DNA of 45,307 bases from Verrucomicrobia bacterium GWF2_51_19 (GCA_001831095.1 MIDP01000001.1:1-45307); one strand, 5' to 3'; shown: positions 5,657-40,094, counted from the first letter of the stretch. The notes: a model not told the origin generated them from the sequence alone. Numbers and translations: made by a program.

Positions 5657-5776
5657 AGATCGACTCAAAATGGCTCTATAGCAAGGCCCGAGGAGCGAGG
5701 GCGACAGGAGCCTACTGACGTAGGTGACTTAGCTCGAACGACGAGAACGCCGCTAGAGGCCATTTTGAGTCGATCT
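5657..5776 (+). repeat. family A palindromic element, copy A2
   Basis: Perfect 18-bp arms 5657..5674 / 5759..5776. Core GGAG-cctac-tgac-gtagg-TGA. Confidence 0.95.
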
Positions 5777-7603
5777 TCTTATGATGTGATTGTCTGTGGA
5801 GCAGGCCATGCCGGCTGCGAGGCTGCTCTGGCGGCTGCGCGCATGGGCGCTCGTACGCTCTTGCTTACGGGCAACCTCGATACAATCGCCCAAATGAGTT
5901 GCAATCCGGCCATCGGCGGTCAAGCCAAGGGCCACATCGTTCGCGAAGTCGACGCACTGGGCGGTGAAATGGCCGTCAATACCGACTTTACTGCCATTCA
6001 ATTTCGTTTACTGAATCGCTCAAAGGGCCTCGCCGTTCAGGCTCCGCGCGCGCAATGCGACAAAAAGGCCTATCAGTTTCGCATGAAGCAGACGCTAGAG
6101 ATGCAGCCCAATTTGCACGTCTTTCAGGCCGAAGTGACGGGCTTGATCCTGCGGGATGGTGCCGTTGCGGGTGTCGAGACGAACCTGGGTTGTGCCTTCA
6201 AGGGCAAGACGGTGATTTTGACAACGGGCACTTTTTTAAAGGGTATTATGTTTGTCGGCGATGCGACTGTCGAAGGTGGCCGCATGGGGGATTTTGCCGC
6301 AAAGAGGCTGTCGAAGTCGCTTTTGGACAGCGGTATTCAGCTGGAGCGTCTCAAGACGGGGACTCCGGCGCGCATATTGGGCCGCAGCATTGACTTTTCT
6401 GTCTGCGAGGAGCAGAAGTCTGATTCCGAGCCAACGCTGTTTGCGTTTTACGACACTCGCGAAGAGATGTTCCACGTGGAACAATTGGGTGAAAACAGGG
6501 TGGGGTGGGGGCCCAACACGCGTAGCACCTCCTGTTGGATGACGTATACCAATGATCAAACAGAGGCCGTTATTCAGGCCAATTTGCGCCGATCCGCCAT
6601 GTACGGTGGTAAGATCGAGGGAGTTGGCCCGCGTTACTGTCCGAGTATTGAAGACAAGATTGTTCGCTTCAGCGATAAGGAGCGCCACCGGCTGTTTCTC
6701 GAGCCAGAGGGCATTCATACCGACGAGTGGTATATCAACGGCCTCTCCACGAGTATGCCAATGGAGGTCCAGGAGGCCATTATCCGCACCATTCCTGGAC
6801 TCGAGCAGGCGATTATTACACGTCCAGCCTATGCCGTTGAGTACGATTACGCGCCGCCAACGCAATTGCAGCCCTCGCTGGAATCAAAGTCGATAGGGGG
6901 GCTCTTTTGCGCGGGTCAAATTAACGGAACTTCGGGTTACGAAGAGGCTGCCTGCCAGGGCCTCGTTGCGGGTGTCAATGCTGCTGCTAAATGCCTCGGG
7001 CTGTCGGAGCTCGTTATCGGTCGAGAAGAAGCCTATACGGGTGTCCTTATCGACGACCTCGTCACCAAGGGCACGCAAGAGCCTTACCGCATGTTCACCA
7101 GTCGCGCCGAATACCGCCTCCTTCTCAATCACAACAGCGCTGAACTCCGTTTGATCGACAAGGCCGCCCAGTACAATCTTTTGCCCGAAGCTCGCGTGAC
7201 CGCCATTCGACAAAAAAAGGCCGCCATCGAGCATTGGGTGAGTCGGTTTGAGGGCACGGGTCTCGACGCCCGCGGGACGCTCGCTGACGCCCTCCGTCGC
7301 AACCTTCAAGTCGAGCTCCCCTATGCATTCCAGGCTCTCTCGGGTGCCATTCGCGAGGAAGTTCTCTATCGCGTTCTCTACCGCGGTTACCTCGAAAAAG
7401 ACTTTGCCCACATTGCCAAAATGAAGGCGATTGACGCCGTCCGCATTCCATCCGACTTCAATTACGAAACACTCAAGGGCCTCCGCAACGAGAGCCTCCA
7501 AAAACTCAAGAAGATCCGGCCCCAAACCCTCGGCCAAGCCAGCCGAATCAGCGGCATCAACCCGGCCGACGTCAGCGTCCTTCTGGTCTATCTGCGGAAG
7601 TAG
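5765..7603 (+). CDS. mnmG: tRNA uridine 5-carboxymethylaminomethyl modification enzyme MnmG (GidA)
   Basis: YDVIVCGAGHAGCEAA FAD-binding N-terminus and full-length MnmG-like sequence. TTG 5765 is preceded by AGAGG. The ORF is also open from ATG 5639, but that extension is made of repeat element A2. Confidence 0.88.
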   Translation: MSRSSYDVIVCGAGHAGCEAALAAARMGARTLLLTGNLDTIAQMSCNPAIGGQAKGHIVREVDALGGEMAVNTDFTAIQFRLLNRSKGLAVQAPRAQCDKKAYQFRMKQTLEMQPNLHVFQAEVTGLILRDGAVAGVETNLGCAFKGKTVILTTGTFLKGIMFVGDATVEGGRMGDFAAKRLSKSLLDSGIQLERLKTGTPARILGRSIDFSVCEEQKSDSEPTLFAFYDTREEMFHVEQLGENRVGWGPNTRSTSCWMTYTNDQTEAVIQANLRRSAMYGGKIEGVGPRYCPSIEDKIVRFSDKERHRLFLEPEGIHTDEWYINGLSTSMPMEVQEAIIRTIPGLEQAIITRPAYAVEYDYAPPTQLQPSLESKSIGGLFCAGQINGTSGYEEAACQGLVAGVNAAAKCLGLSELVIGREEAYTGVLIDDLVTKGTQEPYRMFTSRAEYRLLLNHNSAELRLIDKAAQYNLLPEARVTAIRQKKAAIEHWVSRFEGTGLDARGTLADALRRNLQVELPYAFQALSGAIREEVLYRVLYRGYLEKDFAHIAKMKAIDAVRIPSDFNYETLKGLRNESLQKLKKIRPQTLGQASRISGINPADVSVLLVYLRK

Positions 7604-7633
7604 GGTGGGTGTCAGTTGTTCTGTGTGCCATGG

Positions 7634-9068: not shown

Positions 9069-9992
9069 TTAAGGCAGCGTGATACCCAAAAGGGCGGCGG
9101 TTTGAGGATTGGTGTGGGTGTGAAAATGGCTGAATTTTTCAATGTGTGGAGTGGGGGAGGCTCCGCTGAGAATGTCGGCGGCCATTTCACCGACGCGTTT
9201 GCCGACGTCGTAATCGCTGCAGGCTAAGGCAATCAGGGCTCCCTGTTCGACGGCTTCTGGAAAGGTCGCGAAGGTGGGCATTTTGTGTTGGCTGCAGATT
9301 TTGAGAACGAGTGGCAGGGCTGAAGCGACGGTGTTGTCTTGCAATAAAAACAGGATGTCGATTTTCGGCGATAGCGCCTCGAGCGCCTGAGTGATTGCCG
9401 CCGTGTTGGTCACGGAGCTGGTTATAACGATCAGCCCACGCCCGCCCGCCTGTCCCTGCAGTTGTTCGAGTGTGGCGACAGAGTTGCTTTCCCCCGCATT
9501 GAGCAGTACGCCAATTCGCTTAACGTGCGGCAATACACGCTGAATCAGATCGAGCTGGTCGCCGATCGGCTGTTCAACGTAAACACCGCCAACGTTAGGA
9601 TGTTTGTCGTCTGGCAGCAGGCCAGCACTCACAGGATCGGAGATTCCCGCGAAGAGCATCGTGCCCTGCGGGTTGATCTGCCGAATCGTTTGCGCGGACG
9701 GCGTCGTGATTGCAACAACGACGTCGGGCTGTAGGGTCTTGACCTGCTGTGCGATTTGCAGCGCAATCGACAGGTTGCCCTGCGCGTTGGTTTCAATAAA
9801 GCGCACGTTGCCTGGCGAAAATCCACGAGCCTGTAGACCGTCGTGGACGCCGCGCCGCATGTTATCGAGTGAAGGGTGAGCGACGATTTGTGTAATCGCC
9901 ACCGTTTTTTGACGCAGAGCCGAAGCGGCTACGTCGATATCTTTTTTGCAGCCAAAGAGCAATGCGCTCGCTGCAATCAATAAATAATGCAT
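9069..9992 (-). CDS. ABC transporter substrate-binding lipoprotein (BMP/ABC_sub_bind-like)
   Basis: 307 aa. Lipobox LLFGC near the N-terminus. Periplasmic-binding-protein-like alternating beta-alpha pattern (VAITQIVAHPSLD, VVVAITTPSAQ, IGVLLNAGESNS). Confidence 0.7.
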   Translation of the reverse strand: MHYLLIAASALLFGCKKDIDVAASALRQKTVAITQIVAHPSLDNMRRGVHDGLQARGFSPGNVRFIETNAQGNLSIALQIAQQVKTLQPDVVVAITTPSAQTIRQINPQGTMLFAGISDPVSAGLLPDDKHPNVGGVYVEQPIGDQLDLIQRVLPHVKRIGVLLNAGESNSVATLEQLQGQAGGRGLIVITSSVTNTAAITQALEALSPKIDILFLLQDNTVASALPLVLKICSQHKMPTFATFPEAVEQGALIALACSDYDVGKRVGEMAADILSGASPTPHIEKFSHFHTHTNPQTAALLGITLP

Positions 9993-13644: not shown

Positions 13645-14805
13645 TCAATGAAAACAGATCTCCAAAAGAGAGGCGTCGTCGTAAAAAGCCCCCAGGGCTG
13701 CTTTGGCACGCGAAAGGATGGTTTGGCTATTGTTGCATTGCGAACACGTCTGGAAAATGTCGAATAAGTGCTGGAGGTTTTTCAGCGACTCTTGATTGCC
13801 AGATTCGTAGAGTCCGTCGCTGTAGACGTAGAGCCGACTACCGCTAGGCACCTCAATTGATTCCTGCTGATATGTGATGCCTTCCATGCCTCCAATGACC
13901 AGCCCTTTTGCCTGAAGCTTTTGACCAATGCTATGGCCGCTGATGAAGTATGCTGGCGGGTGTCCGCCCGATGCATAGGTGAGCATTCTCGTGTTTTTGT
14001 GAAAGACGCCGTACCAAATCGTAAAGTATTTGTTGCCCTGTGACTCCATGTCGAAAGTTGTGTTGAGTTGTGTTAGGACTTCACCTGGATGACGGAAATC
14101 GGTATTAACCAGAGACTTCGACCTTAGAATATTCAGGAGCGACGCACCGAGCAGGGCCGCGCCAACGCCGTGTCCACAGACGTCCAACAAATAAACGGCG
14201 AAGTGGTCCGGATCAATCCATGAGTACCCCAAGGCGTCTCCCCCGAGCGCACCCGTGCTCAAGTACGACCATTTGGCGTCGAGAATGGCGCCTGCAGAGG
14301 GAGGAGGAAACAGGGAAATCAGGTAGCGTTCCGCCTCGTCTAACTCTTGTCGAATGAGCCGCTGACTTTCGGCAAGGGCCTCAAACGCCTTTTGCTTTTC
14401 CAAGAGCCGGATGTAAGCTTGCGAGTGGTACCGGATGCGGGCAATGAGCTCGAGCGGATGCGGGTATTTTTGAACAAAGTCATTGGCGCCCATCTTGAAT
14501 GCCTTGTATTTCATGTTGGCGTCTTCATGCATACAGAGGACGAGAATGGGAATATCGGTCAACGTTTTCTCGCCCCGCAGGCATTCGATGATGTGTCGAT
14601 TTTTGATTAACGGACAGAGAAAATCAATCAAGATAACGGTCGGATTGACCGTTTTAGCCTTTTCGACGGCGCCAAATGGATCGGCAAAAAACACTGCCGA
14701 GAACTCTGGTGCCAGCATGGCCTGTATCGTCTGACAGCCGAGCTTTGTCGGGTCCACAACGAGCACTCGATGTTCAAAGACCGTGTTAGCGTGTCCAGAG
14801 TTCAT
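13645..14805 (-). CDS. response-regulator receiver fused to PP2C/SpoIIE phosphatase (RsbU-like)
   Basis: 386 aa. N-terminal REC-like domain (VLVVDP.., VILIDF..), coiled linker, and a C-terminal PP2C pattern (GGDALGY, DVCGHGVGAALL, YASGGHPP, YVYSDGL). Confidence 0.85.
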   Translation of the reverse strand: MNSGHANTVFEHRVLVVDPTKLGCQTIQAMLAPEFSAVFFADPFGAVEKAKTVNPTVILIDFLCPLIKNRHIIECLRGEKTLTDIPILVLCMHEDANMKYKAFKMGANDFVQKYPHPLELIARIRYHSQAYIRLLEKQKAFEALAESQRLIRQELDEAERYLISLFPPPSAGAILDAKWSYLSTGALGGDALGYSWIDPDHFAVYLLDVCGHGVGAALLGASLLNILRSKSLVNTDFRHPGEVLTQLNTTFDMESQGNKYFTIWYGVFHKNTRMLTYASGGHPPAYFISGHSIGQKLQAKGLVIGGMEGITYQQESIEVPSGSRLYVYSDGLYESGNQESLKNLQHLFDIFQTCSQCNNSQTILSRAKAALGAFYDDASLLEICFH

Positions 14806-14820
14806 AATCTAAATGAGTTT

Positions 14821-14942
14821 AAGATCGATGCAAAATGGTCTATAGCGACGTTCTCGTCGTTCGGGCTAGGTCACGTACCAACGTACGCTCCCGTTGCCCT
14901 CGCTCCTCGGGCCTGGCTCTAGAGCCATTTTACATCGATCTT
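14821..14942 (-). repeat. family A palindromic element, copy A3
   Basis: Arms 14821..14838 / 14925..14942 pair at 17 of 18. The core on the minus strand is GGAG-cgtac-gttg-gtacg-TGA. Confidence 0.95.
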
Positions 14943-15026
14943 GGATTCGTTGAATAGAAAGGATTAAAAGATGCTTTTTTGAAAAAATTTCGCTTTTTGA
15001 TATAAACCCTTCATTTTGCATCGGTC
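14943..15026 (+). repeat. family D repeat, copy D1
   Basis: About 80 nt that align with 40095..40175. Contains the AT hairpin aaaagatgcttttttgaaaa and ends in cattttgcatcggtc. Confidence 0.8.
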
Positions 15027-15095
15027 TTTTTAGAATTATACAAAAAAGCGTTTTCATGCAATTTTTATTTCTATTGGCGTGTATTCATAACCTAC

Positions 15096-15222
15096 AGACA
15101 GCATGCAAAATAGATGCAAAAATGTGGCTTTGCGCGAGCATGCATGCCGTAGCGTACATAGAGGTACGTGAGGCAGGCCGCGGAGCGCGAAACGCATTTT
15201 GGCGCTATTTTGCATGCTGTCT
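15096..15222 (+). repeat. family B palindromic element, copy B1
   Basis: Perfect 18-bp arms 15096..15113 / 15205..15222. Core GTAG-cgtac-atagag-gtacg-TGA. The right arm touches the mutL stop codon. Confidence 0.95.
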
Positions 15223-16916
15223 CATAATCCTAGGCGTCTGTTGATCTCGCTCTGAGGCAGCTCAAAGAAGATGGGCTTGCCGCGAGGGCAGGTGTGCGGG
15301 TTTTTACAGTGCATGAGGGCTTCGGCGAGGCGGATAGCCGCTTCTGGCGAGTGAGTGTAGCCCTCTTGAAGCGTTTGCAATGCGGCGTGGCGGGCCATCA
15401 CTTCGTAGGCGACGTGCGGTTTTTGATCGATGAAATTGCCCTGATAAATGAACTCAGCCATGTCGTAGAGAAAGCGCTCGCCGCGGCTGGGATCGAGCCA
15501 AGAGGGTAGGGCGTCGACGCGAAACGTGTTGCCGCCAAAGGGTTCTATGTGGAATCCGCAATGTTCGAAAAAGGCCAGTTTCTTGTTGAACGAAGGGGCG
15601 AGAATGGGCGCCAACTCAAGCGAAAGCGGCAACAAGAGGCATTGCGAGCTGACGGTCTCGCCGGCAAACTCTTCTTGAATGCGTTCATACCAGATGCGTT
15701 GTTGGGCCGAGTGAGCATTGAAGATGATGAGACCATGGGGGCCGTTAAAGAGCTCGCAGCAGTCGTCGACGGGGCCAATGTAGCGCCAATTGAGGTTGAT
15801 GGGCAAATTCAGCGCGATCGGCGGTGTTTCGCGCACAGGGGTCGTCATATGACTTGCCAAAGAGAGAGTCTCTTGAGCCAAGAATGGTGTTTCCTCTAGC
15901 AAGACTGTGCTGTCAACGACGGGCGCTGTTTGCGGGTGGCATGCCTCGAGAGTGGCGCCGAAGGCCTTCATCACGCATTCTTTGATCTCACTGGGGTTGC
16001 GAAACCGTACCTCGCGCTTACCTGGGTGGACGTTGACGTCGACCTCACAGGGATCGATTTCGACAAACAAAAAGGCGACTGGATAGCGGTGTTCGGGAAT
16101 GTAGCTGTGGTAGGCCTCGGTGATGGCGAAACTGAGCGTCCTGTTTTCGATTGGGCGACGGTTCAAAAATAGCAAAATTTCCTGCCGCGTCGAACGAGAG
16201 ATTGACGGCTTGCCCACAAGGCCAAAGAGGTGGCAATTGTCGCTATAATCGAACGCAATCAGGTCCTGGGCGACGCTGCCCCAAATCTCGCGAACGCGCT
16301 CCAGCAACGTTGGGCATGTCGGCGAGCGAAAGAGCGTCTTGCCGTTCTTGATGAGCGTAAAGGCGACTTGCGGGTGCGCCAGGGCGTAGGTTTTCACGCA
16401 TTCGACGATGTGGGCCTCTTCCGTGATGTCGCTTTTCAAAAACTTGCGCCGCACGGGCACGTTTTTAAACAACTGCGAAACCTCTATACGCGTCCCGACG
16501 GGCATGCCGCATTCCGCTTTGCGAACGAGCTTGCCGGCGTCGACAAACAGCTCGGTTCCAAACGATTCCTTCGTCGATCGCGTCTTGAGGCTGAACTGGG
16601 AAACACTGGCAATCGAGGGTAGCGCCTCTCCGCGAAAGCCGAAGGTCTGAATCGAGTTGAGGTCCTCAAAGGCCTGAATTTTGCTGGTTGCGTGACGTTC
16701 GAGAGCCAGGAGGGCGTCGTGGAAAGTCATGCCGCAACCGTTGTCTTCGACGCGGATGTAGTCTTTGCCGCCGTTGGAGAATTCGATTTCAACGGCGCTC
16801 GCTCCAGCATCGAGGCTGTTTTCCAACAGTTCCTTGACGACGGCAACAGGCCGCTCAACCACTTCGCCGGCTGCGATCTGGTTTACGACACTATCTGCAA
16901 GCACCCGTATTTTCAT
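15222..16916 (-). CDS. mutL: DNA mismatch repair protein MutL
   Basis: Start at ATG 16916 gives MKIRVLADSVVNQIAAGEVVERP, a canonical MutL N-terminus. GHKL ATPase motifs are present. The 23 codons upstream in the ORF track read into repeat B2. Confidence 0.9.
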   Translation of the reverse strand: MKIRVLADSVVNQIAAGEVVERPVAVVKELLENSLDAGASAVEIEFSNGGKDYIRVEDNGCGMTFHDALLALERHATSKIQAFEDLNSIQTFGFRGEALPSIASVSQFSLKTRSTKESFGTELFVDAGKLVRKAECGMPVGTRIEVSQLFKNVPVRRKFLKSDITEEAHIVECVKTYALAHPQVAFTLIKNGKTLFRSPTCPTLLERVREIWGSVAQDLIAFDYSDNCHLFGLVGKPSISRSTRQEILLFLNRRPIENRTLSFAITEAYHSYIPEHRYPVAFLFVEIDPCEVDVNVHPGKREVRFRNPSEIKECVMKAFGATLEACHPQTAPVVDSTVLLEETPFLAQETLSLASHMTTPVRETPPIALNLPINLNWRYIGPVDDCCELFNGPHGLIIFNAHSAQQRIWYERIQEEFAGETVSSQCLLLPLSLELAPILAPSFNKKLAFFEHCGFHIEPFGGNTFRVDALPSWLDPSRGERFLYDMAEFIYQGNFIDQKPHVAYEVMARHAALQTLQEGYTHSPEAAIRLAEALMHCKNPHTCPRGKPIFFELPQSEINRRLGL

Positions 16917-16921
16917 AACCC

Positions 16922-17051
16922 AAAAGACGTGCGCAAAATAGCGCAAAAATGCATTTCGCGCTCCGCCGACTGCCTCACGTACCATCGTACGCTACGGCAG
17001 ATCGTACTCGCGCAAAGCCACATTTTTGCATCTATTTTTCACACGTCTTTT
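16922..17051 (-). repeat. family B palindromic element, copy B2
   Basis: Arms 16922..16941 / 17032..17051 pair at 18 of 20. The minus-strand core is GTAG-cgtac-gatg-gtacg-TGA. Sits 5 nt upstream of the mutL start. Confidence 0.95.
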
Positions 17052-17166
17052 TGATTATTAAGGCGTTATGTGTTTCTACGCGAATAAAAAATTTAATTTT
17101 TCATGCCCTTGCGCCTCGGGCCTAGATTCTGCAACGCTCTTTCCACTGAGTTTTCATTACATGTTT

Positions 17167-18282
17167 TTATACAGCCAGTGCTGGGGTCTTCACTGTCTTC
17201 AATTTGAAAGAAAAAGTGCTGCCGACGCCCCATTCGCTCTCGACGTTTACAGCGCCGTCCAGCTTTTCGAGAATGCGGTGGACGATCGATAGGCCGAGTC
17301 CGTGGCCCTCACTGTTGATTTGGTTGATGCGGTTGAAGGGAACGAAGATGCCAGGAATGTCTTCCGGAGAGATGCCGATGCCCTCGTCTCGGACAAAGAA
17401 GGTTGCGTTGTCGTTGTCTTGCGTGAAGCCCACTTCGAGAATCGCAGGCAGTCCTTCCTTGGCATACTTCAGTGCATTTGAGAGGTAATTGAACCAGACT
17501 TCTTCGATCCAGGGAGCGTAGCCGAGGATTTTGGGCAGGTCTTTGGCGATGGTGATTTGTGCTTCTTTGAAACGCGGGTGGTTCTCGAGGCGCTTGAGGG
17601 CGGCATCGACGACAGGGCGCATGTCGAAGGCTTCGGGCTTGAATTTCTTCTTGCGGACGCTCGACAGGAACAAGAGCTCGTTGACGATTTTGTTGGCTTT
17701 GAGTCCGGCGACGTACATGGTGTCGGCGTAATCGGAAATGGCCTTGGCTTCGAGCTCGTTGTTGATGGAAGAGAGGATTTCAGCCATGTTGATGATGCCG
17801 TTGAGGGAACTCTTCAGTTCGTGCGCCACGGTATGGGCGAAGGCATCGAGCTCTTGAATGAGCGTGTTTTGCTCATCGATCTTCACTTGCAGCTCTTTTT
17901 GTAAACGGCTGATGGTGAGATGGGTGTTGAGTCGGGCGAGGACTTCCTCTTGCTGGAGCGGTTTGGTGATGTAATCGACGGCGCCAACTTCAAAGGCGTC
18001 GACCTTGTCCTGGACATCTTGTATGACGCTCAAGAAGATGACGGGAATGTCCTTGGTTTCCGGCATTTTCTTGAGTTGTTCGCAGACTTGAAAGCCATCG
18101 AGGCCAGGCATAATCAGGTCCAATAGGATAATGTCTGGAATGGTCGTTTTGGCAATTTCGAGCGCCTTTTCGCCATTGCGCGCGGACAGTAGCCGGAAGT
18201 TGAACTGCTTCAAAAAGTCGCAGAGTACCGACAGATTTGTGGGCTCGTCGTCGACTAATAGTATTGTGTGTTGCTCATTCAT
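17167..18282 (-). CDS. REC-domain histidine kinase (receiver-HisKA-HATPase)
   Basis: ILLVDDEPTN..LLDLIMPGLDG receiver, H-box AHELKSSLNGI, N and G boxes NYLSNALKY, DEGIGI, GHGLGLSIV. Start set to ATG 18282 (MNEQHT), just outside repeat A4. Confidence 0.85.
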   Translation of the reverse strand: MNEQHTILLVDDEPTNLSVLCDFLKQFNFRLLSARNGEKALEIAKTTIPDIILLDLIMPGLDGFQVCEQLKKMPETKDIPVIFLSVIQDVQDKVDAFEVGAVDYITKPLQQEEVLARLNTHLTISRLQKELQVKIDEQNTLIQELDAFAHTVAHELKSSLNGIINMAEILSSINNELEAKAISDYADTMYVAGLKANKIVNELLFLSSVRKKKFKPEAFDMRPVVDAALKRLENHPRFKEAQITIAKDLPKILGYAPWIEEVWFNYLSNALKYAKEGLPAILEVGFTQDNDNATFFVRDEGIGISPEDIPGIFVPFNRINQINSEGHGLGLSIVHRILEKLDGAVNVESEWGVGSTFSFKLKTVKTPALAV

Positions 18283-18286
18283 AACA

Positions 18287-18533
18287 AAGGTCATTGCAAA
18301 AGTGTCTCTAGCGGCGTTCTTCCCGCAGGCAAATGGGGCAAAAAGTTCGTTATCCATCGTGATTCGCCTAGGTCACGCATTTCAATGCGCTCCCGTCGGC
18401 TCACACTCGGAAGCCTGTTTCTTGCTACATTTGCCTGCGGGACTGTCGTTCGGGCTAAGTCACGTACCAACGTACGCTCCCGTTGCCCTCGCTCCTCGGG
18501 CCTGGCTATAGGCGCATTTTTCAAAGGCCTTTT
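18287..18533 (-). repeat. composite element A4: family A shell carrying a nested family C element
   Basis: The family A sequence gcggcgttct is interrupted at 18320/18321 and resumes as ctgtcgttcgggctaagtcacgtac at 18443. The outer arms are degenerate. Confidence 0.9.
18321..18442 (-). repeat. family C element, copy C1 (nested in A4)
   Basis: Perfect 15-bp arms tcccgcaggcaaatg / catttgcctgcggga. The minus-strand core is GGAG-cgcat-tgaa-atgcg-TGA. Confidence 0.95.
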
Positions 18534-18572
18534 CCTTTCTCGGAAAAATATACAGCATGGAAGCACAAAAAC

Positions 18573-18691
18573 CTCTGCAAAATGCCGTCAAAGCTTGGCT
18601 GTGCGTGGGCACGATCTGGCATAGCGTACATAGGCGTACGTGAGCCAATATGTGTAGCGCGCGAAACGAGCTTTCACGGTATTTTGCAGAG
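18573..18691 (+). repeat. family B palindromic element, copy B3
   Basis: Arms 18573..18588 / 18676..18691 pair at 15 of 16. Core ATAG-cgtac-ataggc-gtacg-TGA. Ends 4 nt from the histidine kinase stop codon. Confidence 0.95.
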
Positions 18692-18695
18692 ATCT

Positions 18696-21600
18696 TCATA
18701 GCAGGGTTTCTAAGAAGGCAATCACGGCGTCATCGCGAAAGGCTCTGGCGTCGCTCGTTACCTTCTTTATAAAGGGCTTTAATTCTGGTTTGTCTTTGGC
18801 GAGTGCGCAACACTTTTCTTTAACGGCCTCTAGGTCGCCCATTTTGGCCAAGGCCAAGAGGCTTTCTATGATGGGTTTGGCTGGGGGAACGATGGCGCTG
18901 TCGGGCCCTTTTTCATCTGCCGGAACACCGGTTTCTCCATCGTAAATCCAGGTGAGGCTCAAATGTTGTTCGAGAGAACTCAAGAGTATTTCCAGTGTGA
19001 TCGGCTTAGCGACGAAGCCATCGCAGCCTGCCTGAAACATCTTTTGCCTCTCGTTCTCCAAGACGCTGGCCGAAACAGCAATAATCGGTGTTTTTTGGAA
19101 AGCGATGTGCTTGCGCAACTGTTGGGTCATTTCACAGCCGTCCATTTGAGGCATAATCCAGTCGAGCAAAATAATATCTGGCTTGAATTGTAGTGCCTTT
19201 TCGATACCCTCAATGCCGTTGTAGGCCTTTTCGAGCTCAAAGCCGAGAGGCGCCAGCATGCCGACAATGACATCGACATTGGTGGTGTTGTCATCGACGA
19301 CGAGGATCTTCTTGCGGTCGCCCTGATAGCCGCGGCAGGCCTGTCGGTACTCTTGTTCTTCGATGCGCTGGTGGACGTTTAAGAAGACTTCAGGCAATTC
19401 GATGTCGAACCAGAACTGCGAACCCTGGCCAACGCGACTCCAGAGGTTGAGTTCACCGCCCATCATGTGAACGAGCTTGCGACTGATCGACAGCCCTAAT
19501 CCCGTGCCCTCTGCCTTGTACGTTTGGGAGGCGACTTGATGAAAAGAGTCAAAGATTTTCTTTTGTTCGGCCTCGGGAATGCCTATGCCGGTGTCTTCGA
19601 CCAAAAAGCGGTAACGCTTGGGCGAGCCTTTGGGGTAGCCGAGTGCCGGGCCGATTTTCAACTTCACGTGGCCCTTGTCGGTGAACTTGACGGCGTTGCC
19701 GATGAGGTTGATGAGGATTTGGCGCAGGCGTTGTTCATCTGAAAGGACGACTTGTGGCACCGGGCATTCGAGCGTTGCCGTCTCTGCGACGAAATCGAAG
19801 TACTCGACGGCGAAATCGATGCCCTTTTCTTGGGCGCGCAGAATGACAATTTCCCTGATCGTTGTGATGAACTCGGGGAAATGAAAGCCGTTATTTTGCA
19901 GACTCATCTTGCCGGCTTCGATTTTGGAGAGGTCGAGAATGTCGTTGATGAGCGTTAAGAGGTGTTCGCCGCTGCGTCGAATGGTGTCCACGCTCTTCAA
20001 TTGATCGCCGGTAAGCGTTGTGTGGGTCTTGAGGATCTGTGCGTAGCCCAAAATTCCGTTGAGGGGCGTCCGGATCTCGTGGCTCATGTTGGCCAAAAAC
20101 TTGCTTTTAGCGATGTTGGCCCGCTCGGCGACAATAGCCATCTCCTGGGAACGATCGATGGCGCGCTTCAGTTCCAGCTCGGTGCGCTTTTGCTCGGAAA
20201 TGTCTTCGGCGATACACAACAAATAATCGGGGTTGCCCTGGTTGTCGAGAATCGGCAGTTTGACGACATGTAAGGTCCTCGGCTCGCCGGAATGCTTGTT
20301 TATGACGCATTCTGGCAGCACCTGCTTGATCTTTTGTTGAAAACACGTGATTTCTTTGTCGGTAAACAATTGTTTGAGGGCGTTGTCCTTGTCGGCATCG
20401 ACCAAGGTTTCGGGATCCCGCCCCATGACGTCGATGGCGCGTATCCCAAAAAAGCTCTCGCACATGCGGTTCCATAAAATGACCTCGCCAAAGCGGTTCT
20501 GTTGGACATGTTTGACAAACAGTGCGACGGGCAAAAAGTCGATCATCGTCTGCAAAAATGCCCGGTTTTCTTCGAGCTCTTTTTTCGCCTGCTTCTTCTC
20601 CGTGATGTCCCTTAAAATACTCAAGAAGTAGCGTTCCTTGTTGATCGCCAGGCACGAGAGCGACATTTCCGAATGGAACGGTTTGCCGCCTTTGCGCAAC
20701 AGAACAAATTCGTCGACGCGGCCCAGGGCAAAGTCTTTATCGGCGTCTTCAAAATGCTGGAATTCGTCTTGATAACGCTCCTGTTGTTCCGGTGGCACGA
20801 GTTTTGTAAAAAAATTCTCGCCCAAAACATCAACCGCGTCATACCAAAAAATGTTTTCAGCCGCCTCGTTCCAAAAGACGATTTTGCCAGTGCTGTCCAT
20901 CATGATAATGGCGTCTTGGGCGCAGGACGTGATTTTGTGAAACGTTTCCTCGCGCGCCCGCAGCGACTCTTCGGTCTCTTTGAGCTTTCGCATGATCGAG
21001 ACAAAGACGTAGATGACGGTGCACAAAATGACGGCAAACATCGTGGCGATCGACACAATGGTTTTCTTGATGGGAGCGATCAGTTGACTCTGATTGATCG
21101 AATAAATATATGGGATCGTCTTCCCGTTGATGCGCAGTGGGTAGAAAGTGGACATCACGTCATCGGCAAAAAAACCTTTGTCGAGGGGCCCTATGCGGTT
21201 GCCCTCGAGCCCCTCTTGTGTCTCGCGCGTGATGGCGTCCAGAAGCCGCTTATCGGGCGCAAAAGGATCATGCGTAAGCGGAGCGTGTAAGAAAATCGGT
21301 CCTTCTTGTTGGATCGTCCAGGTCCAAATCAACGCTCTGCCCAACGATGGAGGCGTCGTGATGGCCGCCAAGAAACGCGCGATATTGATCTCGAGGTAGA
21401 TTGTGTAACTGAGGCCCTTTGACGTCACTTTTTCGACAACATAATCGCGTTCTGGGCGCATGTCATTGACGTCAGTTTTGCCCATCACCACGAAATAGTT
21501 GTGAGCGTCCAAATAAATGTAGCGGTACTCTTCGCGCTCGTTGACAATGATAATGCGCTCCAAGAGGGCCTTGTTTTTGAGGAAAAACTGTTTCAGCCGA

Positions 21601-23752: not shown

Positions 23753-23819
23753 AGGAATACCAACGACATAAGACCGTTTATTATCGACCTTATGTTGTTT
23801 GTATTCATTTAGTTAGATC

Positions 23820-32374: not shown

Positions 32375-33774
32375 ATAAAGAGTTACAGGGTATCGATCCA
32401 TCCGTTGGCAACTTCCATTACGACACGGCTTACGCCTTGGATGCCGGTGTAGGTCTCGATGAGAAGACGGTGCAATACATTTCTGCGGCCAAAGAAGAGG
32501 CGCCCTGGTTGCTCAATTTTCGCCAAAAAGCCCTAAAAGTCTTTCAATCGAAGTCGTTGCCGCTGCACTGGGCGCCGGCCGAAATCGCCAACATCGACTT
32601 TGCCAAACTCCGCTATTATTTGGCTAAAGGCGGCCCGGTGAGCCGTTCCTGGGACGACGTTCCTGAGGACGTCAAGCGGACCTTCGAGCGTTTGGGCGTG
32701 CCAGAAAAGGAACGGAAGTACTTGGCGGGCGTCGAGGCACAGTTTGACAGCGAATCCGCCTATTCTCGCATTCAAGAAAACTTGACCAAGCAAGGCGTGA
32801 TTTTTGTCGGCTCGACAGAGGGTCTCAAACACTTTCCCGACATTTTCCGGCCCTACTTTGGCCGCGTGATTCCAACGGACGACAACCTCTTTAGCGCGCT
32901 CAACAGTGCCGTTTTCAGCGGCGGCAGCTTCATCTACGTCCCACCCGGCGTCAAGGTCAAGCAACCCCTACAGGCCTATTTCCGCATCAACGCAGAGAAC
33001 TCTGGCCAGTTTGAGCGCACACTCATTATCGCCGATGAGGGCTCGGAGGTCACCTACATTGAAGGTTGCACCGCCCCCCGCTTCGACACCACTAACCTCC
33101 ATTCGGCCGTCGTTGAGCTCATCGCCAAAAAAGGGGCAAAGATTCAGTACATCACGGTCCAAAACTGGTCTACAAACGTCTACAACCTCGTCACCAAGCG
33201 CGCCGTTGCCGAGGAGGCTGCAGAAGTCCGCTGGATCGACTGCAATATAGGCTCCAAGCTGACTATGAAGTACCCTGGCGTTGTCCTCAAGGGTCGAAAA
33301 GCACGTGGTGAAGTGTTATCCATTGCACTGGCCAATACCGGCCAACACCAAGATACGGGTGCTAAAATGATCCACGTCGCCGAGGAAACGACGTCGAACA
33401 TCGTGGCGAAATCAATCTCCATCGGAAAAGGACGCTCATCCTACCGAGGCCTCGTGCACATTCCGAGCGGACTGAAGGGTTGCAAAAACAACACCCAATG
33501 CGACGCCCTCCTGATCAATACCGAAAGCCGCACTGACACCTATCCAGCCATTCGCGTCACCGGCGACCTCGCCAGCGTCCAGCACGAGGCCAGCGTCTCC
33601 AAGGTTAGCGAAGATCAAATCTTTTACATGCAGCAACGCGGCCTCACGGAAGCCGAAGCCATGAGTTTGAGCGTCAACGGCTTTGTCAACGAACTCGTCC
33701 GCGCCTTTCCCATGGAGTACAGCATTGAGCTTAAGCGACTTATCGACATCGAGATGACGGGCGCCATAGGGTAA
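32371..33774 (+). CDS. sufB: Fe-S cluster assembly scaffold SufB
   Basis: 467 aa with full-length SufB-like sequence. ATGA start/stop overlap with sufC. Confidence 0.9.
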
Positions 33775-34008
33775 GAATCGCGCACAATAATGCCAAAATG
33801 CGTTTTGCGCTCCGCCGACTGGCCACGGGGAAACCTTTTATAGAATAAAAGGCTTCCCCGACCCCCATCCCAAACACTTTTTAAGCGAAACACAAAAATG
33901 CATGCATTTTTATATTTCGCAAAGAAATGGGTGAAGCTGGAATGTCAGCTCTGTCTCTACGGGAGATCGTGCTCGCGCAAAGCCAGTGGCATCTATTTTG
34001 CGCGATTC
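33775..34008 (-). repeat. family B element, copy B5, with core replaced by an insertion of about 130 bp
   Basis: The left half (33775..33823) and right half (about 33955..34008) match B2/B6. The centre holds the hairpin 33826..33860 and the 18-bp palindrome aaaaatgcatgcattttt (33894..33911). Starts directly after the sufB stop. Confidence 0.85.
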
Positions 34009-34098
34009 TTTTTGAGGTAGTTGAAGACCTGCTGTTTTCCAACGGTGGATGTTTTTTGCTTGCAAAAGCTAGAAAGAATCATTTGCTTTTTCTTAAGT

Positions 34099-34185: not shown

Positions 34186-34186
34186 T

Positions 34187-34421
34187 AAGACTGATGCAAA
34201 ATAACGTGAAAAAGACCGATGATAAATGGTTTCTAGCGGCGTTCTCGTCGTTCGGGCTAAGTCACGTACCACATGTACGCTCCTGTCGCCCTCGCTCCTC
34301 GGGCCTGGCCAGACAACCATTTATCATCGGTCTTATGTCATTGGTATTCATTTAGTTAGATTAAAAAACGCTGTAAAATGGATGTAAAAATCTGGCTTTG
34401 ACATTATTTTGTATCAGTCTT
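34187..34421 (+). repeat. degenerate B-like shell enclosing copy A5
   Basis: Arms aagactgatgcaaaata (34187..34203) and tattttgtatcagtctt (34405..34421) pair at 16 of 17. The interior keeps a B-left fragment (34371..34400). Starts 1 nt after tRNA-Leu. Confidence 0.75.
34212..34334 (-). repeat. family A palindromic element, copy A5
   Basis: Perfect 20-bp arms 34212..34231 / 34315..34334. The minus-strand core is GGAG-cgtac-atgtg-gtacg-TGA. Confidence 0.95.
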
Positions 34422-34499
34422 ACCATTTTATAAGGCACAATTCACCGGTGTGTTGTTTTGTAAAGCAGAAAAAGGCGCTGAAAGACAAACTTCAGAAAG

Positions 34500-35536: not shown

Positions 35537-35780
35537 AAAATCGTTGCAAAATGTCCTCTAGCGGCGTTCTTCCCGAAGACAAATTGGGCAATAAGTTCGT
35601 TATCCTTCGTGATTCGCCTAGGTCACGCATTTCAATGCGCTCCCGTTGGCTCACACTCGGACGCCTGCTTCTTGCCCCATTTGTCTTCGGGACTGTCGTT
35701 CGGGCTAGGTCACGTACCAACGTACGTTCCCGTCGCCCTCGTTCCTCGGGCCTTGCTATAAGCTATTTTCCAACGATTTT
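35537..35780 (-). repeat. composite element A6: family A shell carrying a nested family C element
   Basis: Same architecture and same interruption point as A4. Arms 35537..35553 / 35764..35780 pair at 15 of 17. The A core is GGAA-cgtac-gttg-gtacg-TGA. Begins 2 nt from the tRNA-Gln 5' end. Confidence 0.9.
35571..35692 (-). repeat. family C element, copy C2 (nested in A6)
   Basis: Perfect 14-bp arms tcccgaagacaaat / atttgtcttcggga. Core identical to C1. Confidence 0.95.
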
Positions 35781-36757: not shown

Positions 36758-36787
36758 CGTGAATAGTTTTAATTCATGACGTGAATA
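36750..36787 (+). repeat. 16-bp direct repeat ATTCATGACGTGAATA x2 (period 22 bp)
   Basis: Copies at 36750..36765 and 36772..36787. Copy 1 spans the tatD stop codon and copy 2 spans the GTG start of ATPase paralog 3. Each copy has internal dyad symmetry, attca-tgacg-tgaat. Confidence 0.85.
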
Positions 36788-38010
36788 AAATAATCCCACG
36801 GTGGACGGAGCCTTTGCTGGAAAAGGCTTTAAGCACAATGCCGGTTGTCGTTATCAGCGGAGCTCGGCAGACGGGCAAAACAACACTGGTAAAGAAGGCA
36901 AAAAGTTGCCTCAAGCGAAAGTTTCTCTCTTTTGACGATTTGGATGTCTTAGATCAGGCGAAACGGTCGCCAGACTCATTATTGAATGAGCTTCCTGTAA
37001 CGATTGACGAGGTGCAGCGGTATCCCGATTTTTTATTGAGTGTAAAAAAGAAAGTCGATGATCAACGCAACCCCGGGATGATTTTGTTAACGGGGTCTGC
37101 CAATTTAGCTCTGATGCGAGGAGTCAGTGAAAGTCTAGCGGGTCGAGCGCTCTATGTCGAGCAAGCTCCCTTTTGTGCGGCAGAATGGTTTGGCCGAACA
37201 GCAGTATTCACGTTAATCGATGCTTTTTTCGACAAAACAATGCCGCTCGTGGCTCGGAATGATGCCCAAACGTCTTGGGAATCGTCCTTTTTGTCTGGCG
37301 GTTATCCTTCCGTCATGCAGCTGCAGTCGCCTGAAGAGCGCAGTTTGTGGCATTCTGGGTATATCAAGACTTACTTAGAGCGCGATCTCAGAATGTTGGG
37401 TGAAATCAGCAGCATTATTGATTTCCAGAGGCTGATGCGAATGGCGGCGTTGCGCACGGCGAGACTCTTAAATCAGTCTGAGTTGGCCAGGGACGCAGGC
37501 CTTTCGCAATCAACGTGTCATCGTTATCTCAATCTTTTAGAAACGGGTTATCAAATTTCAAGGATGCATAACTTGACGTTGAATAGAGCCAAAGGGTTGG
37601 TGAAGAGCGCGAAATTGATGTGGTCCGATTCTGGTATTTGTGCGAACCTCGCCCATATGTACAACGAAGAGGATGTGCGTGGTCGGGCGGATGTCGGGTT
37701 TTGGTTGGAACAGCACGTTTTTCAGACTTTGCAGGCGTGGAAAGCCTCTCACTACAATGCATCCATTCATTACTGGCATCAAAGGCCGCACGAGGTCGAT
37801 TTCGTTTTGCAAAAGGACAATCGTCTCGTGGCCATTGAGATCAAACTGAGTTCGCAGATCCGCACGGATGACATAAAGGGCCTTCAAGCGTTTCAAGAAA
37901 CATTTAAGCGTCATTTTGCCGTAACGCGGGGCATTGTTATTTACAGCGGCAAGGACATGAAGGACTTAGGCAATGATATGTTGGCCGTTCCCATCCAATC
38001 TTTAACATAA
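36781..38010 (+). CDS. AAA+ ATPase of AAA_14/DUF4143 type with C-terminal D..ExK motif (paralog 3 of 4)
   Basis: GTG start. Walker A GARQTGKTT, TIDEVQ, TYLERDL segment, EVDFV-x-IEIK. Confidence 0.85.
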   Translation: MNKIIPRWTEPLLEKALSTMPVVVISGARQTGKTTLVKKAKSCLKRKFLSFDDLDVLDQAKRSPDSLLNELPVTIDEVQRYPDFLLSVKKKVDDQRNPGMILLTGSANLALMRGVSESLAGRALYVEQAPFCAAEWFGRTAVFTLIDAFFDKTMPLVARNDAQTSWESSFLSGGYPSVMQLQSPEERSLWHSGYIKTYLERDLRMLGEISSIIDFQRLMRMAALRTARLLNQSELARDAGLSQSTCHRYLNLLETGYQISRMHNLTLNRAKGLVKSAKLMWSDSGICANLAHMYNEEDVRGRADVGFWLEQHVFQTLQAWKASHYNASIHYWHQRPHEVDFVLQKDNRLVAIEIKLSSQIRTDDIKGLQAFQETFKRHFAVTRGIVIYSGKDMKDLGNDMLAVPIQSLT

Positions 38011-38048: not shown

Positions 38049-38168
38049 AAAGGCCGTTGAAAAATGTTCTATAGCAAGGCCCGAGGAATGAGGGCGACAG
38101 GAGCCTACTGACGTAGGTGACTTAGCCAGAACGCCGAGAACGCCGCTACCCATTTTTCAACGGCCTTT
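38049..38168 (+). repeat. family A palindromic element, copy A7
   Basis: Perfect 18-bp arms 38049..38066 / 38151..38168. The core is identical to A2. The right arm runs into a 7-T tract, so it is terminator-like for ATPase paralog 3. Confidence 0.95.
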
Positions 38169-38178
38169 TTTTACAAAA

Positions 38179-39969
38179 ATGAATATACGTAATTTCTGCA
38201 TCATAGCACACGTCGATCACGGCAAAACGACGCTTTCGGATCGTCTTCTGGAAAAGACACACACGGTGTCCAAGCGGGAGATGCAGGATCAGTTGCTGGA
38301 CTCGATGGACCTCGAGCGCGAACGCGGGATAACCATCAAGTGTCACCCGGTGGCGATGCATTACAAGGCGAAAAATGGCCAAACGTATTTGCTCAATCTG
38401 ATCGACACCCCTGGACACGTCGATTTCTCGTATGAAGTCTCGCGCAGTTTGGCGGCCTGCGAAGGTGCCCTTCTCTTGGTTGACGCCGCGCAAGGCATTG
38501 AGGCACAGACAGTTGCAAACGCTCACCTGGCGTTTAATCAGGGCCTGGTCGTCATTCCGGTCATCAACAAGATCGACCTTCCTGGCGCGCACCCGGAACT
38601 CATTCGCAAGCAGCTGGAGGACGTCCTTGCGATAGAGGCCGATCACGCGATTTTGGCCAGCGGCAAGTCTGGTATTGGCATTGAAGAGATTTTAGAGACG
38701 GTGATTGAAAAGGTGCCGGAGCCGCGTTTGGCAGATTTCCCGGAACCGCGCGCCCTGGTCTTTGACTGCGTCTTTGACGCTTTCAAGGGCGTTATCTGTT
38801 ACGTGCGCAACTTTTCTGGAAGCATTCGCCGCGGCGACGAGATTTTACTGATGAATGGCAAGGTCACGTCTCAGGTCAAGGAGGTCGGTGTTTTTGCGCC
38901 CAAAATGACGCCGACAGAGGTCCTCGAGAAGGGCCAAGTTGGCTACGTTGTTACGAGCATTAAGTCCGTGGCAGACATCAAGATCGGCGACACCATCACC
39001 CACGTCTCGACGCCTGCAAAAGAACCACTCCCGGGCTACAAAGAAGTCCGGCCCATGGTCTTCAGCGGCCTCTATCCGCTCGACACCTCCGATTACGAAA
39101 AGCTCAAAACAGCCCTGTCGAAGTTGAACCTCAACGACTCTTCCCTCGTCTACCAATCAGAGAACTCGGCGGCCCTGGGCTTCGGTTTCCGCTGCGGATT
39201 TCTCGGCTTGCTGCACATGGAAATCGTCCAAGAGCGTCTCCATCGTGAATACGGCCTGGACATTATCTCGACATACCCCAGCGTCGTCTATGACGTGCTG
39301 ACAACGCAAGGGCAGCACCTCCTCATCGACAACCCACTCAATTTGCCCGATCCCACCGTCATCGAAAACATCTCCGAGCCCACCATTCGCGCCACCATCC
39401 ACACTCCCAACGAGTGTATCGGCGATTTACTGGCCATGATCAGTGAAAAGCGCGGCATCTGCGATCACACCGAAACCCTCGATTCCAGCCGCGTTATGCT
39501 CGTCTGCAACCTGCCACTCAACGAGATCCTCATCGATTTCAACGACCGCCTCAAGAGCATCACCAAGGGGTACGGCTCCATGGACTACGAAATGGGCGCC
39601 TATCAGGTCTCTGACCTCGTTCGCATGGATATTTTGGTCAACAGTGACAGCGTCGATGCCTTTTCCACCATCGTTCACCGCAACAAGGCTGAAGGCAAGG
39701 GTCGAGCCCTCTGCGAACGCCTCAAGGACATCCTCCCTCGCCAACTCTTTAAAGTCGCCATCCAGGCCTCCATCGGCAGCAAGGTCATCGCCCGCGAAAC
39801 CATCGGCGCCCTCCGCAAAGACGTCACCGCCAAGTGCTACGGCGGCGATATCACCCGCAAGAAAAAACTGCTCGAGAAGCAAAAGGAAGGCAAAAAACGC
39901 ATGAAACAAATCGGCAAGGTCTCCATACCCCAGGAAGCCTTTATCAATATCCTAAAAACCACAACGTAA
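38179..39969 (+). CDS. lepA: translation elongation factor 4 (LepA)
   Basis: 596 aa. IRNFCIIAHVDHGKTTLSDRLL, DTPGHVDF, NKID, and a LepA-specific C-terminal domain. Confidence 0.95.
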   Translation: MNIRNFCIIAHVDHGKTTLSDRLLEKTHTVSKREMQDQLLDSMDLERERGITIKCHPVAMHYKAKNGQTYLLNLIDTPGHVDFSYEVSRSLAACEGALLLVDAAQGIEAQTVANAHLAFNQGLVVIPVINKIDLPGAHPELIRKQLEDVLAIEADHAILASGKSGIGIEEILETVIEKVPEPRLADFPEPRALVFDCVFDAFKGVICYVRNFSGSIRRGDEILLMNGKVTSQVKEVGVFAPKMTPTEVLEKGQVGYVVTSIKSVADIKIGDTITHVSTPAKEPLPGYKEVRPMVFSGLYPLDTSDYEKLKTALSKLNLNDSSLVYQSENSAALGFGFRCGFLGLLHMEIVQERLHREYGLDIISTYPSVVYDVLTTQGQHLLIDNPLNLPDPTVIENISEPTIRATIHTPNECIGDLLAMISEKRGICDHTETLDSSRVMLVCNLPLNEILIDFNDRLKSITKGYGSMDYEMGAYQVSDLVRMDILVNSDSVDAFSTIVHRNKAEGKGRALCERLKDILPRQLFKVAIQASIGSKVIARETIGALRKDVTAKCYGGDITRKKKLLEKQKEGKKRMKQIGKVSIPQEAFINILKTTT

Positions 39970-40094
39970 GACCGAGTCAAAATAGCGCCAAAATGCGTTT
40001 TGCGCTCCGCTGACTGCCTCACGTACCTCTATGTACGCTACGGCATTCATGCTCGCGCAAAGCCACATTTTTGCATCTATTTTGCATCGGTCTT
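39968..40094 (-). repeat. family B palindromic element, copy B6
   Basis: Arms 39968..39985 / 40077..40094 pair at 16 of 18. The minus-strand core is GTAG-cgtac-atagag-gtacg-TGA. The left arm begins inside the lepA stop codon. Confidence 0.95.

Follow-up and report, generated by a model that had tools for sequence, protein, structure and literature searches.

A repetitive extragenic palindromic (REP) unit is an imperfect palindrome of 20-40 nt that is tagged at one end by GTAG (or CGTC). REPINs are hairpin-forming doublets of REPs with conserved ends, in which compensatory changes are common, and they are thought to be moved by RAYT Y1 transposases via single-stranded intermediates (PMC3116915). 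GTAG REPs are reported to be abundant in Opitutus terrae, a member of the Verrucomicrobia, and families of long inverted repeats accompany some RAYT-like genes (PMC3733652). We have analyzed a 45.3-kb stretch of DNA (MIDP01000001.1, positions 1-45307, the source read in one direction; G+C about 52%), which in its whole length we call the window. Nearly every intergenic region of the window contains at least one foldback repeat of ~120-130 bp. The arms that close these repeats differ from one copy to the next, yet within a copy they remain Watson-Crick complementary, and this is statistically solid. The closest described analogue is REPIN/REP-type hairpin mobile DNA, combined with template switching at quasi-palindromes. 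The explanation that we favor, with moderate confidence, is that the arms of these foldback repeats are recopied at the DNA level by intramolecular template switching.

Three related families of foldback repeats

The repeats fall into three related families that were told apart by BLAST and profile searches: A (~122 bp), B (~127 bp) and C (~122 bp), with an overall range of ~122-128 bp. Copies beyond the window were collected by scanning metagenomes with the core motif, not the arm motif, and this gave 54 loci. All but three belong to one population genome, that of the source organism (51 of 54); the others (L077, L099 and L104) are chance matches and not the element. The total sequence is ~615 kb, of which 438 kb is non-redundant and from the source organism, corresponding to about a tenth of a genome, and all the elements sampled come from this one population genome. 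Within the 438 kb there are 164 copies (88 A, 67 B and 9 C), or 0.37 per kb and 3.9% of the DNA. The window sequence itself is present in four assemblies, NCBI GCA_003447165.1 and contigs from ENA, JGI and Logan. A scan of a genome collection with a G+C-rich 19-mer from the A core (GCCCTCRYTCCTCGGGCCT) gave, among the matches listed, chance ones in high-G+C Actinobacteria, and none of these was the element.

The families share a common plan, in which an outer stem of ~18 bp or more closes a conserved core that contains a short central hairpin, C(G/C)TAC-loop-GTA(C/G)G. B is a near-complete hairpin of 127 nt, with a small local palindrome in each half that was seen by eye only. Every unit in the window folds as a single strand far beyond shuffled sequences (z -5.5 to -9.0), and the theme of the arms, AAGACCGATGCAAAATRG, has 14 matches in the window at three mismatches or fewer where 0.09 would be expected by chance. 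In the closing stem the boxes AAGACC (arm positions 1-6) and AAAATGG (from position 12, with 12-17 conserved) flank a variable segment of 5 nt. At these positions, 7-11, the diversity is 0.3-0.66 and up to all four types of Watson-Crick pair are found. The central loop is as variable as this segment. Most core positions have a diversity of 0-0.1, making the core the most conserved part of the element. The C family is laid out likewise (TCCC-NNNNN-CAAAT). The main variable segments differ by family, GTTG in A and GATG or TATG in B, and therefore the arms travel with their cores and are not pre-existing targets. In 77 of 94 copies both the similarity and the inverted repeat break off abruptly at AAGACC/GGTCTT. 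All copies differ from one another; the closest pair is 97.5% identical and the median nearest neighbor 92%.

The resemblance to REPINs extends to many features. Both are high-copy, extragenic sequences of ~70-130 bp that lack a target-site duplication, occur in clusters and composites, and consist of two inverted units folding into one long single-stranded hairpin; a few of the present copies overlap gene ends. In both, the terminal boxes are conserved and the paired interior is less so, with common compensatory changes (PMC3116915). The central C(G/C)TAC-loop-GTA(C/G)G resembles head-to-head GTAG tags, a likeness seen at the level of the motif. However, the tag here is mostly GTAC, which all 39 aligned B copies carry and 39 of the 54 A copies; the other 15 A copies have GTAG. 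The variable zone is a discrete segment in the closing stem and not a central spacer, and the A core is not palindromic. In addition, the arms are here sometimes rewritten from host flanks, and no RAYT was found in the 438 kb sampled. The repeats work like REPIN-type hairpin mobile DNA, but because GTAC is the majority tag and no Y1 transposase was found in a sample of about a tenth of a genome, membership of the REPINs cannot be claimed.

Covariation and probable copying of the closing arms

The covariation was measured in 93 non-redundant complete copies (54 A and 39 B), and compared with alignments in which partners were shuffled between copies. In A, 91.8% of the arm and hairpin cells are paired compared with 82.5 ± 0.5 after shuffling, and 121 cells carry a double change where the shuffles give 34.7 ± 6.4. 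The corresponding values for B are 97.1% against 86.2%, and 164 double-change cells against 45.4. The observed number of double changes was reached in none of 500 shuffles in either family. As a control, sliding the partner by 1-3 columns in A gives pairing of 25-43%. The central hairpin of A covaries too, with CGTAC/GTACG in 39 copies and CCTAC/GTAGG in 15.

Compensatory and single-arm changes were then set against each other in a contingency test confined to rare alleles, those found in no more than two copies. In A there are 17 one-sided changes, 15 that are mirrored as Watson-Crick pairs and none that is mirrored and unpaired, with 0.57 both-sided changes expected; in B the counts are 13, 15 and one, with 1.3 expected. 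Thus 15 mirrored changes are found in each family where independence predicts about one, and they are spread over 11 (A) and 12 (B) different copies. From the pairing, the double changes and the contingency test together, the mismatches are unlike those that would result from independent mutation of the two arms. The first-pass annotation of the window had proposed that both arms change together, and this holds in the 54 A and 39 B copies.

For the window itself, an inverted-repeat search and a recount over 18-nt arms agree with the units and arms placed by that annotation, and we could reproduce its pairing scores for A2, A3, A5, A6, A7, B1, B3, B4, B6 and the shell. The copies are as follows, with the strand in parentheses.

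1-98 (+): A1, an A copy cut by the window start; right arm 81-98; abuts the stop codon of an AAA_14/DUF4143 gene (98-1348, -).
5656-5777 (-): A2, complete A between mnmE and mnmG; arms 5656-5674 and 5759-5777, 19/19 (18/18 over 18 nt); unique variable segment GACTC/GAGTC; its right arm overlaps what is probably the start region of mnmG.
14821-14942 (+): A3, complete A; arms 14821-14838 and 14925-14942, 17/18.
15011-15028 (-): solitary arm CATTTTGCATCGGTCTT, complementary at a distance of 174 nt to A3's left arm.
15096-15222 (-): B1, complete B; arms AGACAGCATGC.../...GCATGCTGTCT, 18/18; overlaps the mutL stop codon.
16912-17061 (+), core 16924-17054: B2, complete B; inverted repeat of 30 nt at 83%, running ~8 nt past the usual end.
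18287-18531 (+): A4::C, an A with a nested C; A arms poorly paired, 13/18.
18321-18442 (+): the C in A4, in the TTCT loop of a small CGACG/CGTCG hairpin; arms TCCCGCAGGCAAAT.../...ATTTGCCTGCGGGA.
18568-18696 (-): B3, complete B; arms 28 nt at 86%, 15/18; abuts the stop codon of a PAS histidine-kinase gene.
23773-23819 (+): remnant of an A right arm with the recurrent A-B linker (ATGTTGTTTGTATTCATTTAGTTAGATC).
23820-23948 (-): B4, complete B; arms 29 nt at 97%, 18/18; variable segment GACAC/GTGTC.
33773-34010 (+): B5, in which an insert of ~130 nt holding other palindromes takes the place of the central hairpin; outer arms pair at 16-17/18; overlaps the stop codon of the gene upstream.
34186-34422 (+): shell with B-like arms 34186-34211 and 34397-34422, 26 nt at 88%, 17/18; encloses A5 and a linker; lies directly after tRNA-Leu.
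34212-34334 (+): A5, complete A; arms 20/20 over 20 nt, 18/18 over 18 nt; variable segment GATGAT/ATCATC.
35537-35780 (+): A6::C, an A with a nested C, adjoining tRNA-Gln; A arms AAAATCGTTG/CAACGATTTT, 15/18.
35571-35692 (+): the C in A6; arms 25 nt at 92%; variable segment GAAGA/TCTTC.
38049-38168 (-): A7, complete A between an AAA_14/DUF4143 gene and lepA; arms 18/18 (AAAGGCCGTTGAAAAATG).
39968-40094 (+): B6, complete B; arms 16/18; first bases overlap the lepA stop codon.
41133-41182 (+): A8, a partial and degraded A comprising only the left arm and the start of the core.

The pairing looks like a property of DNA rather than of RNA. A compensating RNA stem is expected to pass via wobble pairs and to favor transitions. 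In the present stems G-T cells make up about 1% of paired cells on either strand, and the mirrored pair types in the two families comprise 18 and 19 transversions, and 14 and 16 transitions. With wobble pairs so few and transversions as common as transitions, the stems act as strict Watson-Crick DNA duplexes. In the A family there are 42 A-C mismatch cells compared with 10 G-T cells. Two inherited mismatches account for half of this asymmetry, and the excess is absent in B (counts of 17 and 24), so that there is no consistent strand asymmetry of wobble. The first-pass annotation had suggested selection on a folded nucleic acid; for a DNA hairpin, such as a single-stranded DNA transposition intermediate, this is possible, but with no consistent wobble asymmetry it is not favored for RNA.

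Some arms have evidently been rewritten as a whole. The left and right arms have consensus sequences that can be told apart at several diagnostic sites, one of them an indel in the inner stem. In a copy at L080:1924 the arms pair perfectly over 27/27 positions and both are of the right-arm type. In another at L094:7174 the arms again pair perfectly (26/26), and both share about eight departures from the consensus, without the indel. A cluster of substitutions and an indel together yield an exact complement, which is the hallmark of a single templated event.

In two further copies the arms contain coding sequence. The left arm of the copy at L120:4487-4636 (AAACCCTGCTAAGGAATATG) is formed by the last codons of sucD (encoding ...E T L L R N M stop) and its right arm (CAAATTCCTTAGCAGGGTTT) is an inverted copy of this; alignments to solved (PDB) SucD structures reach residue 287 of 289. 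In the copy at L118:3581-3726 the outer left arm encodes the start of a match to the Pfam family Khk (ketohexokinase), and the right arm mirrors it. The inverted repeat of these two copies runs 9-11 nt past the normal end into conserved coding sequence. Since conserved coding sequence cannot derive from the element, the far arm must have been copied from the near flank. Copies of C nested in A, which do not lie at the ends of the composite, have variable segments that differ yet are mirrored (GCAGG/CCTGC, GAAGA/TCTTC and ACAGG/CCTGT).

These observations can be accommodated by a mechanism in which A, B and C would be non-autonomous foldback repeats, of the kind represented by REPINs and by MITEs (transposable elements of the miniature inverted-repeat type), that have spread through the intergenic DNA of one bacterium. 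When one arm changes, template switching on the hairpin during replication or repair would either revert the change or copy it onto the other arm, and both arms would then change in a single event. Occasionally the copying would overrun the end of the element, generating an inverted copy of the neighboring host sequence. During replication, template switching is able to generate perfect hairpins and keep them perfect, and compensatory changes can result from it in one step (PMC8794818). In the correction of quasi-palindromes, clusters of substitutions and indels likewise turn one arm into the exact complement of the other in one step, stems extend outward, and 'compensatory' changes arise without selection (PMC8794818). 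Such correction is a mutational mechanism and not a family of repeats, whereas here it would act recurrently on hundreds of dispersed copies. The first-pass annotation had named arm-to-arm correction by template switching as one possibility, and it is the best supported one, from the parity of transversions with transitions, the scarcity of wobble pairs, the whole-arm rewriting and the copying of flanks.

A number of points weigh against this explanation. Correction of quasi-palindromes alone leaves the conserved boxes and the spread of the families unexplained. Neither does template switching by itself explain why the variable segment and central loop vary far more than the core; this needs constraint on the boxes and core together with old or recombining lineages, or a locally raised mutability. 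Only 2-3 of 94 copies have arms derived from a flank. Most A copies have a mismatch at arm position 11, and a subfamily of 12 A copies shares the same two fixed mismatches, ATTGC opposite GTTGA. Imperfect arms are therefore inherited and propagate, and correction is neither obligatory nor fast. In a sample of about a tenth of the genome, alleles classed as 'rare' are not necessarily young. Haplotypes of the arms have been reassorted with respect to those of the core, which argues for gene conversion between copies and weakens arguments based on lineage. As to movement, a tblastn search of the 615 kb with IS200 TnpA, IS608 TnpA and the E. coli TnpA-REP (4ER8_A) found nothing below E = 0.1, and there is no insertion polymorphism among the four assemblies, which are 99.9-100% identical. 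Since in addition the copies are never identical, recent mobility is unproven. In A the number of arm mismatches is weakly correlated with private core divergence (rho 0.31, p 0.02), and in B there is no correlation; on these small numbers this is mild support for maintenance in situ.

The same covariation might have arisen by selection without any copying. A structure-recognizing transposase (RAYT/IS200-like) would move single-stranded DNA hairpins, only well-paired lineages would multiply, and the covariation would result from compensatory point mutations of the ordinary kind in master lineages that are old and co-exist. The hairpin architecture, the lack of a target-site duplication and the orientation bias described below fit transposition of single strands. 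The variable segment and central loop look saturated and the core is conserved, as in old lineages under selection for transposition competence, and CTAC-loop-GTAG resembles the head-to-head GTAG dimers of REPs, with REPINs showing similar compensatory changes. However, selection cannot yield inverted copies of coding sequence 14-26 nt in length, nor the conversion of whole arms including indels. Rare mirrored changes are about as frequent as one-sided changes, whereas two independent point mutations would be rarer by orders of magnitude. The arms of nested C copies covary although they are not the ends of a mobilized composite, and no Y1 transposase is found in the 615 kb. We therefore consider selection alone to be an unlikely explanation.

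Alternatively the arms might not be part of the mobile unit at all. If the cores enter the apical loops of palindromes that are already there, be they host hairpins or an older 'shell' repeat, the diversity of the arms would be that of the targets. Such insertion would be consistent with the position of C exactly in the hairpin loop of A at four loci, with A5 lying inside a B-like shell, and with the foreign insert at the center of B5; it would also fit the two copies whose arms are made of local host sequence. There are indeed a few short 'empty' AAGACC...GGTCTT palindromes, but these are very rare compared with the occupied ones, and spacings of 122 and 127 nt dominate. Moreover, the main variable segments of A and B differ, indicating that each type of arm moves together with its core, and 77 of 94 copies share one canonical end. 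In the sucD and ketohexokinase copies the near arm is coding, so that an inverted copy of coding sequence would have been required before insertion. Of all the explanations considered this seems to us the least probable.

We have also considered whether the closing stem is actively rewritten by the machinery of propagation. An arm may be regenerated from the other one at insertion or repair, sometimes from adjoining host DNA as a kind of 'inverted target-site duplication'. In another sense, the segment between the recognition boxes may be a freely reprogrammable pairing code that defines partner ends. We think active rewriting quite unlikely. If true, it would be a mode of propagation of bacterial mobile DNA that has not been described for REPINs or MITEs.

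Composites and genomic context

Many of the repeats are joined to each other. Composites in which A (+) is followed by B (-) across a linker of ~25 nt involve 22 of the 88 A copies, and internally deleted derivatives are present. The repeats are mosaics, as in BIME-type arrangements. The sequence TCCTTTCGTAAGTTGTTAATACAC recurs as the A-B joining linker, and in some of the A and B copies the right arm is followed by a recurrent module of ~45 nt, GGnTTCGTTGAAnnnAAAAGnnTTnAAAAGATGCTTTTTTGAAAA (window 14943-14990 and 40095-40140; L078 ~3270 and L079 ~2370). C is found at one site in four A copies, the TTCT loop of the CGACG/CGTCG hairpin (window 18321-18442 and 35571-35692, L106:10257-10378 and L080:2779-2901), with a junction in L080 that differs from the other three. 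The shared site points either to repeated insertion into a hairpin loop, specific for site or structure, or to a 245-bp composite that spread as one unit. Another palindromic repeat, CGAAACACAAAAATGCA/TGCATTTTTGTGTTTCG, lies within the insert of B5 (33878-33927) and at L115 ~9560-9600 and L096 ~1620; its recurrence at several loci indicates that there are hairpin families in the genome beyond A, B and C. The assemblies disagree at some repeats. The NCBI assembly lacks 32 nt in the right part of A4 (L068:6331-6334, compared with window 18469-18500), and has an NN-padded insertion of 8 nt inside A2 (L068:19117).

The genes of the window include mnmE, mnmG, gatAB, mutL, truA, lepA and two tRNAs, and the elements lie between them. 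The contexts of A are ~69% co-directional, 14% convergent and 17% divergent, which are ordinary proportions. Relative to co-directional flanking genes, A is preferentially antisense (38:16, p = 0.004) and B sense (30:6, p = 7e-5), a bias that fits either selection at the level of transcription or strand-specific insertion of single strands. Of 82 complete copies with the end of an open reading frame nearby, 20 (24%) begin 0-3 nt from the last base of the stop codon. Within the window this contact occurs at 98, 15222, 18696, 33773 and 39968, and the first A residues of the element often complete TAA or TGA.

It might be argued from this placement that the repeats function as RNA. The units would be co-transcribed with their neighbors, and the stem-loops might act as terminators, 3'-end stabilizers, translation-coupled regulators or small RNAs. 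The orientation bias, the proximity to stop codons and the strong folding can all be read in this way, and REPs downstream of genes have been reported to act as RNA elements (PMC3733652). In the A family, the surplus of A-C over G-T mismatches also points in this direction, as an A-C mismatch corresponds to G-U on the strand that is mostly transcribed. As we have seen, however, half of that excess comes from two inherited mismatches, B has none, wobble pairs are ~1% and transversion-type mirrored changes are as common as transitions. Elements occur at the expected frequency in divergent promoter regions, and the copying of flanks into arms is an event of DNA. No relevant family was found in Rfam: in the window only the two tRNAs reach the gathering score, and nothing relevant appears at E values up to 1 across 14700-18800. 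A function in RNA is thus very unlikely to be the origin of the covariation.

The terminator form of this proposal is not supported. An intrinsic terminator has a short G+C-rich stem, a loop of 3-8 nt and a T-run directly afterward, and is placed at the 3' ends of genes. The first-pass annotation had likened several of the arms, bracketed by runs of A and T, to bidirectional terminators. The arms are ~85 nt apart and a terminator scan does not call them, terminator-like sites are not enriched over shuffles (18 compared with 13.5 ± 4.7, and 11 compared with 10.7 ± 3.5), and there is no excess of elements in convergent intergenic regions.

Several further observations concern the neighboring genes. 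The starts called for three genes in different assemblies lie inside elements: mnmG (5759-5790), mutL (16924-17054) and a response-regulator/kinase gene (18321-18357). MnmG has been called at 654, 605 and 586 amino acids, and a TTG codon in the right arm of A2 would give an N-terminus of normal length. The elements may be supplying or displacing start codons. Genes for AAA_14/DUF4143 ATPases, which form a large family of diverged paralogues (25-50% identity), are located at 98-1348 (-), 2886-4139 (-) and 36781-38010 (+) in the window, with at least eight more in L073, L086, L102, L103, L116 and L117, giving at least 11 in the 438 kb. These are the only multi-copy reading frames in the sample, and two of the window copies are directly followed by an A element. 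A linkage between these genes and the elements was considered and rejected, as only two of 11 paralogues abut an element. The divergent region between an AAA_14/DUF4143 gene and mnmE (4043-4178) contains ~3.5-4 tandem copies of a 32-nt unit, AAACTCCATTTTGCAATGCAATTTGGAGTCG (83% matches), each with a small inverted repeat of its own, GGAG...CTCC.

Mobility, relatives and significance

The ends of the elements bear no sign of a fixed target-site duplication. A duplication of at least 4 nt was found in at most one of 50 clean A copies at any boundary offset. Direct repeats of 2-3 nt exceed chance at the best offsets (12 compared with 3.1, and 5 compared with 0.78), with no fixed duplication, and the flanks of A are merely A/T-rich. 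The elements resemble mobile DNA in occurring at many unrelated loci, in their sharp ends and lack of a target-site duplication, and in their deleted, nested and composite forms. The repeats would be mobilized by an enzyme that recognizes structure, possibly a transposase of the HUH/Y1 (RAYT-like) type that acts on hairpins of single-stranded DNA. In that case the two conserved boxes would be sites of protein recognition, with the segment between them free to vary as long as it remained paired. The Y1 queries used in our searches were validated, and the DNA sampled is only about a tenth of a genome; the weak Y1/RAYT matches obtained were to argS and trmD and are due to chance. No TnpB was seen in the sampled sequence and no integrase near the elements. 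Nor was a parent insertion sequence (IS) with matching ends seen in the sample, where no genome-wide search for such long elements was made.

Comparison with other classes of repeat is informative. The bacterial MITEs (Correia/NEMIS, ERIC, RUP and Nezha) are also intergenic, high-copy sequences of ~100-150 bp beside genes that have terminal inverted repeats and can be nested. Classical IS-derived MITEs have a target-site duplication of fixed length and conserved terminal inverted repeats in common with a full-length, transposase-encoding IS, whereas the present repeats lack a TA or other duplication, and the covariation of the variable segment means that their inverted repeats are not uniformly conserved. 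The first-pass annotation had contrasted the repeats with classical MITEs on the grounds that pairing and not sequence is conserved. This is fair for the 5-nt segment and overstated for the whole arms, since the outer 6 nt and the inner 7 nt are conserved in sequence.

The integron attC sites are likewise imperfect inverted repeats (57-141 bp), of which the folded single-stranded structure rather than the sequence is conserved. An attC site has conserved ends (R''/R') and a free center, whereas here the core is conserved and a segment of the stem is variable. The attC core sites RYYYAAC/GTTRRRY are absent from our alignments; there is no cassette array, and the elements lie between housekeeping genes. 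The palindrome-associated elements of the IS200/IS605 type share hairpin ends, the lack of a target-site duplication and strand-biased insertion, and a short variable sequence could be a guide. However, no TnpA or TnpB was seen here, and the variable segment has neither identity nor complementarity to the flanks in 81 copies; a guide or target code read against the flanks is thus rejected.

The host, an uncultured bacterium, probably belongs to a Verrucomicrobiota-like lineage. The closest named relatives of its LepA are from Verrucomicrobiota (Opitutales, Puniceicoccales and Ruficoccus), at 73-75% identity, and on this basis the NCBI label of GCA_003447165.1, 'Candidatus Edwardsbacteria bacterium', looks doubtful. 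The nearest LepA relatives of all have 77-78% identity, a G+C content of 41-42% and a different synteny. Two loci of these relatives (33 kb) contain no A, B or C elements, and as far as can be tested the superfamily is therefore restricted to the lineage.

This is a new and unusually dense superfamily of foldback repeats, the arm behavior of which has precedents. In a poorly studied lineage it brings together three families of structured repeat, nested insertion into hairpin loops, a marked orientation bias and recurrent contact with stop codons. If our reading in terms of template switching is true, the repeats are a natural experiment, in which hundreds of hairpins carry 'compensatory' changes without selection on RNA. 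This would call for caution in the inference of RNA structure from covariation, and would provide real examples of the growth of palindromes into coding sequence. The mobilizing enzyme would show whether REPIN-like transposition of single strands extends beyond the GTAG/RAYT systems.

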